A stretch of DNA of 64,000 nucleotides from an uncultured Methylomirabilota bacterium. GTDB lineage: Bacteria; Methylomirabilota; Methylomirabilia; Methylomirabilales; 2-02-FULL-66-22. Numbering within the stretch: the stretch's first letter is position 1; each line of letters begins with the position of its first letter. The stretch is from the NCBI GenBank assembly GCA_963705305.1, contig OY970067.1, positions 5,440,001 through 5,504,000 of the forward strand, given 5' to 3'. Positions 15,001 to 18,000 of this stretch are shown piece after piece. Made by a program: the position numbers.

Positions 15001-18000
15001 CGAGAATTGGCCGGCTGAGGGACCCATCGCATGCGCAGCCCGTGGCTCGATATTCCGTTGGCCGAGTACGAAGGGCACATGTCTTTGCCCGCCGTCGGGC
15101 AGGCAGAGATGCTTGCGGCCCAATTCGCCGAGTTGCTCGTCGAGTACTCTCCGCCATCCGTCGCCGTGATCGGGTGCGCCGGCGGCAACGGCTTTGATCG
15201 TATCTCCCCGGGAAGAACACGCCGCGTTGTCGGAGTCGACATCAACCCAGGCTACATTGAGGAAGCGTCACGCCGGTACGCGAGGAGCCTTCCGGGCTTG
15301 GAGCTTTACGTCGGCGACATTCAACAATCCGGTCTGTCCTGTGAGCCGGTCGATCTCATCTACGCCGCCCTGGTGTTCGAATACATCGAGCCGGAGCCGA
15401 GCTTTCAGGCCCTCAAGTCCCTTTGCAAACCGAACGGAATTCTGGCCACCGTGCTTCAGTTGCCCTCCCAATCAGTCGCGGCGGTGTCGCCTTCACCTTT
15501 CACCAGCCTTCAGGCGCTCGGTCCGGTCATGCGCCTCATATCGCCAGGCACCCTAAACGCCCAGGCGGAGCAGGCTGGGTTTGTGCTATTGTCATCCCGC
15601 CAGGTTGCCTTGCCTTCGCACAAGGAGTTCGCGGTGCAGGTGTTCCAGCTACCAACGGCGAACCCTTCGCCCCACGGGACGTTCCGACAAGCGGCGCGTC
15701 CCTGAACCTGGACGTTGGGCTCAGGGAGAAGGTCATATTTCGTGAGAGGCTTCGAAGCCTGAAGACCATTGCTCGCTCCACACCGCATGGGCGCTGACAA
15801 GGAGAAACAGATGAGGCAAAAGAAGGGGAACGACGTCGCATCGCACTGCTTGACCCGACGGGAGGCCCTACGGCTCGGGGCCGCGGCGGGGGCGGCCATC
15901 GGACCGTTCGCCTCGACGCCGGCCCGCGCGCAAGCCTTCAACTGGCAGCGCTTCAAGGGCAAAGAGGTGTACCTGATCTTTCTCAAGCATCCGTGGGTGG
16001 ACGAGATCGTCCCGCATATCCCGGAATTCGAGTCGCTCACCGGCATCAAGGTGCAGTATGAGGTCCTGCCGGAAATCCAGGCCCGCCAGAAGCTCACGGT
16101 GGAGTTTCTCTCCGGCTCCGGGGGTATAGATGCATTCATCACCAGCCTGCATGTGGAGAAGCGCCGGTTCTGGAAGGTGGGTTGGTACGAGCCCCTGAAC
16201 AAGTACCTCGCGGACAAGACGCTCACTGCGCCCGATTATGACTGGGATGACTTCACGCCCACCGCCAAGGCGGCGGCCACGCAGCCCGACAAAACCGTGA
16301 GCGCGATTCCGACTTACGTGGACCCCGACATCCTGTTCTACCGGAAAGACATCTTCCAGCAGCAGGGTCTCAAGCCCCCCAAGACCCTGCAGGAGCTGGA
16401 GGCACTGGCGCAGAAGCTCCACAATCCGCCGACCATGTACGGTTTTGTCTCACGGGGGCTCAAGAATGCCAACGCCTCCCCGTGGGCGTACGTGGTGTTT
16501 GCCTTCGGCGGCGAGTACCTCACCCCCGACCGGAAGTCCGCCATCAACTCGCCGGCCTGGGTGAAGGGCCTCGAATGGTATTCGGGGATGCTCCGCCGCT
16601 TCGCCCCGCCCGGCGTCGTGAACTTCAACTGGTACGAATGCAGCTCCGCCTTCATGCAGGGCCAGGTCGCCCTATACTACGACGGGGTGAACTTCGCGAC
16701 CCAGTTCGAGGACAAGGAGAAATCCAAGGTGGCGGGAAAGGTCGGCTACACCCTGCTGCCGGCGGGCCCGGGCGGTCTCCACACCTGCATGTTCACCACG
16801 GGCTTGTCCATCAGCGCCCAGAGCAGGAACAAGGAGGCGGCCTGGCTCTTCATCCAGTGGGCCACCACGAAGCAGAACTGTGTCCGCGAGCTGGTGGCAG
16901 GCGTCGGCGGCGGCCGCGGCTCCATCTGGAACAATCCCGAGGTCAAGGCCAGGCCGCGGATGCCGGCCGACTGGTACACGGCCTTCCAGGAAAGCCTGAA
17001 GATCGGGCGGAACGGCCTGCCCGAGATCGTGGACGTCACGCAGTACCGGGACATCATCGGGCTGGCCATCCAGAAGGCGATCGAGGGGACCAAACCGGCG
17101 GACGCCATCGCCCAGGCACACAAAGAGTTTCAGGAAATGCTGGACAAGACCGAGACGTAGATGCGTACCGCTCGGAACGCTGTGTAGTGGGCGACGAAGT
17201 CGTTGAACAGTGTAGTAATTGTGCCGGATCACTCAGCCGTGGGCATCCGGGCTATCGCGTGAACACCATCTACATCCGCCTGCGTTGGCGAAGGGTGTCA
17301 TGAACGCGTTTCAGCGTCTCGTGCGCGCTGCGGTCATCGGGGCCCTGCGGGATACGTCCCGGGCCCCGACGGCCGCGGCGCTCGCCACCGCGCTCGGGGC
17401 GACCGAGGGGGATGTCTCGGCGGCATTGCGGGCCCTGGCGGCCGGGCATCGCCTGGTCCTGACCCCGGGGACCGATACGGTGTGGATGGCGCATCCGTTC
17501 TCGGGCATCCGGACGGACTTCCGCGTGGAAATCGGCACTCGCCGCTGGTTCGCGAACTGCGTGTGGGATGGGCTGTCGATCCTGGCCCTGCTGGGTGACG
17601 GCACGCTCGACACGCACTCGCCGGCTACCGGGGACGCCATCCGCTTCGCGGCGGCCGCCGGCCGGGTCTCCGGCGAGGCGCTCGTCCATTTCCTGGTACC
17701 GGCCCGGCGCTTCTGGGACGACATTGGGTTCACCTGAGCCAACATCACCGCCTTCCGGTCGGAGGGCGAGCTGGATGCCTGGCTGCGGGCCGGAGGGTAC
17801 CAGAAGGGCGCGATCGTAACCCCGCAGGCCCTCTACGAGCTGGGAGCGGAATGGTACGCGACGCGGCTCGACGTGGACTGGGAGCCGGCGAGCGCGACCG
17901 AGGCCACGGCGCTATTCGGCCGCCACGGCCTGACGGGACCCTTCTGGACGCTCGCGTAGGCAGGGTGCCACCATGCGGCGACTCGGGGAGATGTCCGCCC

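Follow-up and report, generated by a model that had tools for sequence, protein, structure and literature searches.

The stretch of DNA analysed here (the window; 64,000 nucleotides from the genome of an uncultured Methylomirabilota bacterium) carries on its forward strand a frame of 219 codons at 17300-17959 that contains a single in-frame TGA. A MerB-type catalytic domain spans this codon and a hairpin lies 3' of it. The features are as follows.

17300..17959, + strand: full coding sequence of a MerB-like putative selenoprotein (ATG at 17300, 219 codons and a TAG stop; translation with TGA read as U, Pfam, AlphaFold2)
17300..17479, + strand: N-terminal three-helix, winged-helix-like domain, approximately residues 1-60 (helices 3-19, 25-32 and 36-48 in the model)
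17498..17857, + strand: MerB catalytic domain PF03243, residues 67-186, spanning the TGA (74.4 bits, HMM 1-125 of 126)
17558..17569, + strand: codons for Cys87-Val-Trp-Asp90, counterpart of MerB Cys96-x-x-Asp99 (phmmer alignments to 5c17, 3f2g and 1s6l)
17735..17737, + strand: in-frame TGA, putative Sec codon 146, counterpart of MerB Cys159 (TGA conservation, Cys column, MerB alignment)
17749..17768, + strand: SECIS-type hairpin with an 8-bp stem (17749-17756 and 17761-17768) and the loop GGUC (17757-17760) (fold, covariation, third positions)

Calling open reading frames with translation table 11 places the end of the gene at 17737. The first-pass annotation of this DNA had proposed that the resulting 145-aa call ends at an in-frame TGA with 73 more conserved codons beyond it, a proposal that the 219-codon frame and a whole-domain Pfam match now confirm. 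The read-through protein matches PF03243 with the 74.4 bits given above and passes the gathering threshold of 27 bits. With the 145-aa product alone we reproduced the earlier observation that the match stops at the TGA (39.5 bits, HMM 1-79 of 126), while the 73 residues that follow score 17.9 bits by themselves (HMM 88-125 of 126). The region 3' of the TGA is coding sequence: the third codon position varies most on either side of the TGA (0.72/0.82/1.26 ahead of it, 1.06/1.02/1.47 beyond it), and 73-75 codons follow the TGA in 34 of 40 loci.

At least 565 relatives of the read-through protein (clusters at 90% identity) were found at E <= 1e-5 among the 8000 candidates scored in a word-indexed search, and 109 of the best 120 are exactly 145 aa long, both numbers being as first reported; of the best 150 clusters made at 50% identity, 75 stop at the TGA codon. 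These short entries, together with the fact that all gene callers stop at the TGA and that two copies in other genomes (L036 and L044) have clearly decayed, could be taken to mean that the TGA is a true stop, leaving a 145-residue N-terminal protein and a downstream frame that is either translated separately or a remnant of a split gene or pseudogene. No conserved restart codon is found after the TGA, however, the first in-frame start of any kind lying anywhere from codon 3 to codon 72 or being absent, and the downstream part keeps its coding-type variation and its constant length. The two parts follow on from each other within a single Pfam domain and a single predicted fold, relatives without an interruption carry Cys at the site, and the hairpin beyond the site covaries. 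The split, moreover, falls exactly at the catalytic residue in every locus that reaches it, which is unlike decay. We therefore regard a true stop as highly improbable.

The conservation of the TGA itself is without exception among the loci that reach the site: 119 of 119, made up of the window, 40 loci from species genomes and 78 from metagenomes, from at least six named phyla. The GTDB species genomes hold 42 loci, 40 of which have TGA at the aligned codon; the other two have no codon to assess, L035 ending at a contig end and L036 being internally deleted, frameshifted and without the site. Among 80 metagenome loci, TGA is found in 78 and the remaining two are cut by contig ends. An earlier count of 39 out of 39, with three loci left out, has thus grown to 40 of 40 assessable species genomes and 78 of 78 assessable metagenome loci.

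Decoding of the TGA as one of the ordinary amino acids (Trp, Cys or Gly), through an alternative code or general read-through, would also give a full-length protein, and three database proteins (P0002, P0004 and P0126) do show W at the site. The first-pass annotation had flagged such relatives for checking: their number has risen from two to three, and P0002 reads W beyond the normal C-terminus of the family as well, so that its W reflects translation with a TGA=Trp table and is not evidence for TGG. The genes of the family end in TGA in 26 of 40 cases, which shows that TGA is also a stop in the organisms that carry them, and the carrier phyla use the standard code. With a SECIS-type hairpin 3' of the codon and SelA in 39 of the 42 carrier genomes, we give almost no weight to decoding as an ordinary amino acid.

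The hairpin is located inside the coding sequence; 11 nt separate the UGA from the stem, and its distance from the loop is 19 nt. Its core, CUUCC-GGUC-GGAAG, is near-invariant across 41 sequences, third positions included, and third-position entropy falls to 0.91 over it. The bSECIS model, as set out in the accessible text of PMC13188914, calls for an apical loop of 3-9 nt with a G in its first two positions, an upper stem of 4-16 bp, a distance of 16-37 nt from UGA to loop and a minimum free energy of -7.5 kcal/mol or lower. The window hairpin, with a folding energy of -14.9 kcal/mol, lies within all four limits, as do 36 of the 41 family sequences; the other five hairpins miss the energy threshold in a 26-nt fold. 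In the alignment 84.3% of cells are paired, four of the eight pairs have changed on both sides, and the covariation score was reached by none of 500 shuffles. The compensatory changes (for example GCC..GGC, GGC..GCC, CUC..GAG and UUU..AAA) link amino-acid-changing substitutions to synonymous ones. A whole-region RNA fold of 17730-17800 has a z-score of -1.27, which is uninformative alone; the evidence for the hairpin comes from the comparison between sequences and not from its folding energy. On these grounds the SECIS-like hairpin described in the first-pass annotation stands: it fits the bSECIS model, it covaries and its third positions are constrained. A scan of 17600-17900 with Rfam gave no SECIS match; a SAM-IV match to the other strand of the same interval (14.2 bits against 38) was set aside as chance.

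The genome from which the window comes encodes the full Sec machinery, namely SelA (488.8 bits), SelB, SelD (341.9 bits; its gene has an in-frame TGA too) and a tRNA-Sec (77 bits, the gathering score being 47). The three carrier genomes in which SelA was not found have sizes of 1.7-3.0 Mb. We consider it very probable that TGA codon 146 specifies selenocysteine.

Relatives further afield display the usual Sec/Cys signature, since full-length proteins with Cys at the site exist: among the 150 best representatives at 50% identity, 57 have Cys in the Sec column. These Cys proteins (P0123, P0127, P0142, P0147 and others; about 220-235 residues), unnamed in the libraries that we used, are 28-43% identical over their whole length and share the architecture C-x-W-D ... 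T-[C/U] ... F-R-S-E with the family of the window protein (the FTU family). They differ from it in having Cys in place of Sec; in one large branch the motif reads C-x-W-C and not C-x-W-D, and some of the proteins carry a fused GNAT, glyoxalase-like, DUF3303 or LuxR domain. The claim that the family always has Sec consequently depends on where its boundary is drawn: it holds within the close clade, where the site is invariably TGA, and fails once the full-length Cys relatives are admitted. A tree of the N-terminal 145 residues (136 of the 150 best representatives and the window protein, rows of fewer than 115 residues dropped) is poorly resolved, so that switches between Sec and Cys are not countable on it: 65 of its 133 branches are open, and the starred branches force only one of the 11 changes needed. 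On this tree Cys forms interleave with presumed Sec forms, the label 'Sec' being presumed from truncation at the site.

A sister clade of MerB-like proteins in the phylum of the window (loci L156-L173) has TGA at the same catalytic column and the same CUUCC-GGUC-GGAAG hairpin over its F-R-S-E codons. Its motifs are different, C-C-A-I-D-A-L-G for the first and L-U-T for the second, and its identity to the query P0123 is 25-35%. Close Cys counterparts (I-C-L-T-L-N-F-F) occur in the same phylum; TTC CGG TCG GA(A/G) is present in 13 of 13 Sec forms, and the exact hairpin in none of six Cys forms. With Sec at the same position and the same hairpin in this L-U-T clade, the FTU group appears as one of several Sec-bearing clades of MerB-like proteins.

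The relationship to MerB extends through the whole protein. The AlphaFold2 model has a pLDDT of 98 and a pTM of 0.93 over all 219 residues, and MerB and MerB2 structures account for every one of the top 11 Foldseek matches in the PDB (E 4e-9 to 4e-6), with a TM-score of 0.69 for 5c17 and up to 0.69-0.72 for the MerB/MerB2 matches. A phmmer search of the PDB finds MerB2 5c17 at E 6e-4, in an alignment that starts at query residue 13 and so brings the N-terminal region opposite the N-terminal part of MerB2. The phmmer alignments set U146 opposite the Cys of GGTC in MerB2 5c17 and opposite MerB Cys159, and C87 opposite the Cys of FAWC or YAWC, Cys87 and Asp90 thereby corresponding to MerB Cys96 and Asp99. 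That Sec takes the position of Cys159 while the Cys96-x-x-Asp99 pair is retained, as had been suggested, is upheld by this alignment and by the conservation of CxWD. The motif had been counted in 39 of 39 loci; in the larger set it is near-universal, being present in 116 of the 118 loci that have the TGA and sufficient upstream sequence, and the two loci without it have broken N-terminal parts. By alignment, Cys87, Asp90 and Sec146 are predicted to converge in space as a MerB-type active site.

Compared with MerB of plasmid R831b (EC 4.99.1.2; PDB 1S6L, 3F0O, 3F0P and 3F2F) and with MerB2 (PDB 5C17), the window protein has the same fold, a similar length (219 residues against 212 and 209) and three aligned catalytic positions, Cys96, Asp99 and Cys159 being matched by Cys87, Asp90 and Sec146. 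It has about 20% identity to these enzymes, however, with Sec in place of Cys159, so that MerB-like chemistry would be plausible though not the same, and where MerB has the pair Cys159-Cys160 there is no second Cys adjoining the Sec. The NCBIfam MerB models NF009710 and NF033555 give 24.8 and 18.3 bits, below their curated cut-offs of 193 and 200 and identical to the values first recorded, and the MerB models reach at most 51 bits among the 18 of 68 proteins of our A3 alignment that were scored in detail (9 of 29 proteins from Sec-clade loci and 9 of 38 Cys relatives). The window protein is not the canonical MerB of a mer operon.

Gene context agrees with this. The neighbours in the window encode a solute-binding protein, methyltransferases and a serine hydrolase. 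No MerA exceeds the curated cut-off in the genome of the window (the best candidate has 373 bits against 454), and only one of the 42 carrier genomes has a MerA above it; the earlier remark that no mer operon lies nearby thus holds. When all ORFs of at least 90 aa within 5.5 kb of the site were clustered for 41 loci, no conserved neighbour emerged, the best family being common to six of the 41 once the gene itself and its antisense shadows were put aside. A context in which no neighbour family recurs at more than six loci offers no hint of the substrate.

The absence of a MerA partner from the genome of the window and from 41 of the 42 carriers would also suit a protein that binds metal(loid)s as a sensor, chaperone or regulator and is not a lyase. 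Its Cys/Sec site would then take up a metal or an organometal, and its N-terminal winged-helix domain would relay the signal or contact DNA; the reading of the TGA as Sec would be unchanged. Local Foldseek comparisons do show a likeness between the three-helix N-terminal domain and the winged helices of MntR, DtxR and LexA, a few members have weak NCBIfam matches to GntR and ArsR helix-turn-helix models, and the Cys-type proteins P0146 and P0175 have a C-terminal LuxR/GerE DNA-binding domain. The Foldseek matches, however, are local ones of 50-65 residues (MntR, DtxR and Z-alpha winged helices) at E>0.05, the enzymes MerB and MerB2 themselves have a homologous N-terminal domain, and the LuxR fusions are confined to distant Cys forms outside the FTU clade. 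The proton donor Asp90 is retained in the 116 loci with CxWD, and it would be superfluous in a pure binding site. A sensor or chaperone is, in our judgement, unlikely.

In the lyase mechanism that we propose instead, UGA codon 146 would be decoded as Sec, the GGUC-loop hairpin being the bacterial SECIS element by which SelB and its Sec-tRNA(Sec) are recruited. Sec146, Cys87 and Asp90 would form the active site. By analogy with MerB, an organometal(loid) compound would be bound through its metal or metalloid atom by the thiolate and the selenolate, Asp90 would protonate the leaving carbon, the carbon-metal bond would be cleaved and the bound metal would be handed to a cellular thiol. The analogy makes a carbon-metal(loid) lyase activity of some kind somewhat probable; organomercurials are a possible but doubtful physiological substrate. 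In a genome that has no MerA, the Hg(II) from a MerB-type reaction would have no dedicated reductase. The Se-Hg bond is very strong and would hinder product release. Candidate roles for the protein are that it may demethylate methylmercury independently of a mer operon, or may act as a lyase for organotin, organolead, organoarsenic or organoselenium compounds. Taken together, we think it likely that 17300-17959 on the + strand is one intact gene for a 219-residue MerB-fold protein in which UGA encodes Sec, and that this protein is a stand-alone accessory with lyase chemistry analogous to that of MerB.

A MerB-like selenoprotein has been described before. The accessible text of a preprint by Haft and Gwadz (bioRxiv 10.1101/2022.07.06.499078) presents SaoL, the MerB-like 'selenocysteine-assisted organometallic lyase' (NF040728), as a protein whose Sec stands where MerB has Cys159 and which retains the counterparts of Cys96 and Asp99, as the marker of a SAO locus of nine genes (SaoB, C, D, E, P, T, X and others) and as reported only from anaerobic species, Clostridioides difficile among them. 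Judged by that text, the two families are alike in their PF03243 fold, in the Sec at the Cys159 position, in the counterparts of Cys96 and Asp99, in the truncation of database entries at the UGA and in the suspected organometallic chemistry. They differ in their motif, C-U in SaoL and T-U in the FTU family, where the window protein and all 40 species-genome loci that include the site have Thr-Sec and not Cys-Sec. According to the same text SaoL has about 50 residues after the Sec, in contrast to 73 in the window protein, and belongs to its nine-gene locus, whereas ORF clustering within 5.5 kb of the FTU loci found no neighbour common to more than the six of 41 noted above. The hosts of SaoL are there given as exclusively anaerobic, while carriers of the FTU family include Acidobacteriota, Gemmatimonadota, Actinomycetota, Chloroflexota and others. 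The window protein does not match the SaoL model at E<=10, and 14 of the 18 A3 proteins scored in detail match it at E<=0.01 with 16.8-50.8 bits, all below its cut-off of 140. That the family is distinct from SaoL, as the first-pass annotation had argued, is borne out by these scores and by the T-U motif.

Even so, the FTU family could have been described under another name or counted within SaoL, in which case the finding would be correct but not new. An 'Alkylmercury lyase MerB-like protein' has long been listed in selenoprotein family tables, with Zhang and Gladyshev 2008 and Peng et al. 2016 cited as sources in the accessible portions of PMC9312934 and PMC13188914, and 52 of the 68 A3 proteins have weak matches to the SaoL model at E<=1. 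Against this, the accessible part of the 2026 selenoprotein catalogue (PMC13188914) has one MerB row only, which is SaoL (NF040728, motif CU), and the members of the family stay far below the SaoL cut-off. The window protein passes no model in NCBIfam release 20.0, and the NCBI names among the best 120 relatives all sit on 145-aa products (for example 'alkylmercury lyase family protein' in Geomonas sp. RF6). MerB is not mentioned in the deep-Sep paper or in the main text of BSepDB, and our full-text searches of the accessible selenoprotein literature did not find the family. A prior description is, on balance, decidedly unlikely.

If the FTU family is what we propose, misannotation affects a large group of bacterial genes with a wide distribution, the entries that are cut at the TGA losing the catalytic residue and the last third of the protein; a family model combined with a recoding rule would correct hundreds of database annotations. 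It would add a selenoprotein family to the Acidobacteriota, Gemmatimonadota, Actinomycetota and Chloroflexota that dominate soils and whose selenoproteomes have been little studied. Sec at the Cys159 position of MerB would then be recurrent (SaoL, the FTU clade and the L-U-T clade) and not a peculiarity of the anaerobic SAO system. Since MerA is almost always missing from its carriers, the family is a testable candidate for organometal(loid) chemistry outside the mer operon, including mer-independent degradation of methylmercury. We go further only tentatively, in an idea that is rather unlikely to hold in full: that this MerA-independent family and its sister Sec clades are overlooked carbon-metal(loid) lyases of soil and sediment bacteria, with a reactivity or metal preference specific to the selenolate.

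The carriers, named here by the titles of their metagenome-assembled genomes, are spread over the four phyla just listed and others, and the gene, a stand-alone accessory, is patchily distributed and has probably been exchanged between phyla. The idea that it resides in an integron cassette was not supported, no recurring attC-like repeat being present between neighbouring genes. Elsewhere in the window, at 11282-11473, there is a C-terminal fragment that resembles an integron integrase. The gap between the MerB-like gene and the next gene is only 13 nt.

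The gene for a predicted MerB-like selenoprotein is a real feature of the window. Judged from sequence, it is a single gene whose UGA, at a catalytic column, is conserved, and its elements and flanking genes are these:

15769-17160: ABC-type solute-binding protein gene, upstream of the selenoprotein gene
17300-17959 (+): predicted MerB-like selenoprotein gene, 219 sense codons in one frame closed by TAG
17735-17737 (+): in-frame TGA at codon 146, the sole TGA inside the 219-codon frame
17749-17756 and 17761-17768 (+): 8-bp stem of a SECIS-type hairpin, loop GGUC at 17757-17760, from folding and covariation
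17973-19019 (+): beta-lactamase-family (PF00144) serine hydrolase gene with an S-x-x-K motif, starting 13 nt after the selenoprotein gene's stop

Standard ORF calling ends the gene at 17737, and the 145-residue product matches the Pfam MerB model (PF03243) over HMM positions 1-79 only (39.5 bits). The read-through protein matches positions 1-125 of 126 (74.4 bits) and the 73 residues 3' of the TGA, tested alone, match positions 88-125 (17.9 bits); the two pieces are thus consecutive parts of a single MerB domain. It is the only PF03243 gene in the genome. Searches of solved structures with phmmer found MerB2 5c17 (E 6e-4) and MerB 3f2g, 1s6l and 3fn8 (E about 0.04), and these alignments place the TGA column at MerB Cys159 and Cys87/Asp90 at Cys96/Asp99, in agreement with the residues named in the first-pass annotation.

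We recovered the 42 species-genome loci reported previously and found TGA at the aligned codon in 40; the contig of locus L035 stops short of the site and L036 is a frameshifted copy with an internal deletion. In an independent second set, 80 metagenome loci, TGA is at the site in 78; the other two are cut by contig ends, and all 119 loci that reach the site (window, species genomes and metagenomes) carry it. The frame runs on for 73-75 codons past the TGA in 34 of 40 loci, and entropy is highest at the third codon position on both sides (positions 1/2/3: 0.72/0.82/1.26 upstream, 1.06/1.02/1.47 downstream). Restart codons are not conserved: an ATG, GTG or TTG first comes up in frame anywhere between codons 3 and 72 past the TGA, and 2 of 41 sequences have none. 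Together these observations show that the sequence 3' of the TGA is coding. Of 40 loci, 26 end the family gene itself with TGA, so the carriers use TGA as a stop too. The C-x-W-D motif, whose conservation had also been noted, is present in 116 of 118 loci, both exceptions having damaged N-terminal parts. In the Sec clade, some members from Gemmatimonadota and Actinomycetota (L029, L033, L041 and L042) have an extra C-x-D-C (CPDC, CLDC or CADC) some 35-40 residues before the Sec, where the window protein has S-P-A-T; this may be an added metal ligand pair.

The SECIS-like hairpin described earlier 3' of the TGA held up well. Its stem begins 11 nt and its loop 19 nt after the UGA, and its folding energy is -14.9 kcal/mol. 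The bacterial SECIS model, as set out by Zhang et al. 2026 (PMC13188914), calls for a loop of 3-9 nt with G in the two opening positions, a stem of 4-16 bp, a UGA-loop spacing of 16-37 nt and an MFE of at most -7.5 kcal/mol. The window hairpin and 36 of 41 family sequences fall within all four limits, the five misses being due to energy or an alternative fold within the 26-nt folding window. Across the 41 sequences the core CUUCC-GGUC-GGAAG is near-invariant, third positions included, and the codons CGG (41/41), UCG (39/41) and, in spite of the G+C-rich genomes, GAA (32/41) are kept; third-position entropy drops to 0.91 over the hairpin. The outer stem pairs covary through changes that alter the protein (Ala..Gly, Gly..Ala, Leu..Glu, Cys..Ala), and a metagenome variant with a UUU...AAA stem couples a synonymous Phe change to a Glu-to-Lys replacement. 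Overall, 84.3% of cells in the stem are paired and four of the eight pairs show changes on both sides; the covariation score was reached by none of 500 shuffles and every slid register scores lower.

A second MerB-like clade in the window's phylum, with C-C-A-I-D-A-L-G as its first motif and L-U-T-x-L-N-F-F-R-S-E as its second, served as a control. It has TGA at the same catalytic column (L156, L157, L159, L160, L162, L165-L170, L172 and L173) and carries the same CUUCC-GGUC-GGAAG hairpin as the FTU clade, to which the window gene belongs. All 13 forms with TGA at the site read TTC CGG TCG GA(A/G), whereas the exact hairpin occurs in none of the six Cys forms, the closest of which, L155, has TCC for TCG; L155, L158 and L171 are close Cys counterparts (I-C-L-T-L-N-F-F), and in six further loci the motif search located no site. 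The hairpin thus tracks the UGA and not merely the F-R-S-E peptide. Some related loci of the phylum, found with Cys relative P0123, contain two TGAs.

The 5.65-Mb, single-contig genome encodes SelA (488.8 bits), SelB, a tRNA-Sec (77 bits; gathering score 47) and SelD (341.9 bits). SelD is itself a selenoprotein (L054, G000:C1:1797183-1798121, + strand), its in-frame TGA near the N-terminus being followed 12 nt downstream by the hairpin GGUCC-GGC-GGACC. SelA was found in 39 of the 42 carrier genomes, and the three misses are genomes of 1.7-3.0 Mb. SelB would bring Sec-tRNA(Sec) to the UGA at codon 146; Sec146 and Cys87 may then bind a metal(loid) atom and Asp90 protonate the carbon, by analogy with MerB.

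The earlier counts were reproduced: 565 relatives reach E<=1e-5, and 109 of the 120 listed are exactly 145 residues long. When 1.84 billion 50%-identity representatives were searched exhaustively with HMMER, 1293 relatives came up at E<=1e-3. Among the best 150, 75 end exactly at the Sec site and 57 are full-length with Cys there (28-43% identity), which is, in database sequences, the classic Sec/Cys signature; the rest have W (1), other residues (6) or a gap (11) at that column. The existence of full-length Cys relatives means that the Sec previously called invariant is so in the close clade but not in the wider family. FastTree was run on the N-terminal 145 residues (136 rows, shorter rows dropped, Sec inferred from truncation and not DNA) and placed the window inside a 42-row group with 37 presumed-Sec and no Cys rows; outside it the two states interleave in a poorly resolved tree. 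A W at the site in database relatives had been raised as a doubt; P0002, P0004 and P0126 show one, and in P0002 it is an artefact of translation with a TGA=Trp table, because P0002 also reads W past the family's normal end. Among the distant relatives, Cys forms have fusions to GNAT acetyltransferase, glyoxalase-like, DUF3303 and C-terminal LuxR/GerE domains, and one site-truncated form has a fusion to an RNase H-like domain (P0140, P0144, P0176, P0192, P0146, P0175 and P0148 are the domain-fused relatives); the Cys-form fusions give a hint that the wider family may have roles in detoxification or sensing, and say little about the FTU clade.

The AlphaFold2 model built on the 68-sequence alignment (pLDDT 98.0, pTM 0.93) has the MerB fold: MerB and MerB2 structures take all 11 top places in a Foldseek comparison with the PDB (E 4e-9 to 4e-6; next match E 0.05), with MerB2 5c17 at TM 0.69/0.72 and rmsd 3.2. 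The protein is a Pfam MerB member that lies outside the curated MerB equivalogs and SaoL. We obtained the same NCBIfam MerB scores as before (24.8 bits where the cut-off is 193, 18.3 bits where it is 200) and again no match to the SaoL model. Among 18 of the 68 aligned proteins scored in detail (9 of 29 Sec-clade and 9 of 38 Cys relatives), none exceeds 51 bits against NF009710 (cut-off 193), and 14 match SaoL NF040728 at E<=0.01 with 16.8-50.8 bits (cut-off 140).

SaoL is likewise MerB-like with Sec at the Cys159 position, so such a selenoprotein is already known. Its defining active-site dipeptide is C-U in the Haft and Gwadz preprint, whereas the window protein has T-U. As had been proposed, the FTU family is another clade; it differs in motif, context and host range. 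SaoL is the only row under MerB in the accessible part of a 2026 prokaryotic selenoprotein catalogue (PMC13188914), and in a 2022 review (PMC9312934) one row reads 'alkylmercury lyase MerB-like'. MerB goes unmentioned in the deep-Sep paper and in the main text of BSepDB. Full-text literature searches, which did not take in BSepDB Table S2 or Haft and Tolstoy 2025, turned up no other relevant report, so any claim of priority would be provisional.

By MAG title the 42 loci belong to Acidobacteriota (13), Gemmatimonadota (12), Actinomycetota (10), Thermodesulfobacteriota, Chloroflexota and Bacteroidota (1 each) or no phylum (4), and one Methylomirabilota name occurs among the protein matches. Phyla are clustered but mixed on the gene tree (7 changes against a minimum of 4), which is compatible with some transfer. 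With P0123 as query, related genes turned up in 4 of the genus's 20 other genomes and, across the phylum, in 53 of 251, a tally that counts the window's genome and unpublished G075 (no G075 sequence analysed). Methyltransferase genes also lie upstream of the gene, and neighbour gene families are each limited to 6 of 41 loci at most, which leaves no operon context to draw on. MerA above the curated cut-off is absent from the window's genome and, among the 42 carrier genomes, present in 1. That MerA is missing, and a mer context too, as already remarked upon, argues against classical mercury resistance as the role of the protein.

The serine hydrolase gene has an in-frame TAG (18369-18371), its halves matching HMM 4-119 and 126-327 of 329; a pseudogene, a sequencing error and unexplained read-through are the alternatives. 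Around the MerB-like gene there was no sign of attC-like repeats. About 6 kb upstream, a fragment at 11282-11473 (+) scores 83.5 bits with integron-integrase model TIGR02249, over the model's C-terminal 57 positions, and matches Pfam Phage_integrase; the genome's main integron integrase, elsewhere (G000:C1:853432-854377), appears to lie in two frames with a TGA. At 22844-23866 there is a gene for a Y1 (IS200-like) transposase with a DnaA-C-like HTH; perfect, low-G+C 32-nt inverted repeats (22774-22805 and 23862-23893) flank it, the whole spanning 22774-23893, and it has a paralogue at 12587-13594. At 12109-12408 and 15024-15323, 2915 nt apart, a stretch of at least 300 nt is present as an exact direct duplication. 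It overlaps in part the methyltransferase ORFs 11927-12541 and 15031-15705, which lie on either side of a Y1 transposase gene, and looks like a gene duplicated or split by insertion. A 49-nt direct repeat, 92% identical (14669-14717 and 21232-21280), lies where two small paralogous ORFs, of which the ABM-domain ORF 21271-21756 is one, apparently have their 5' ends.
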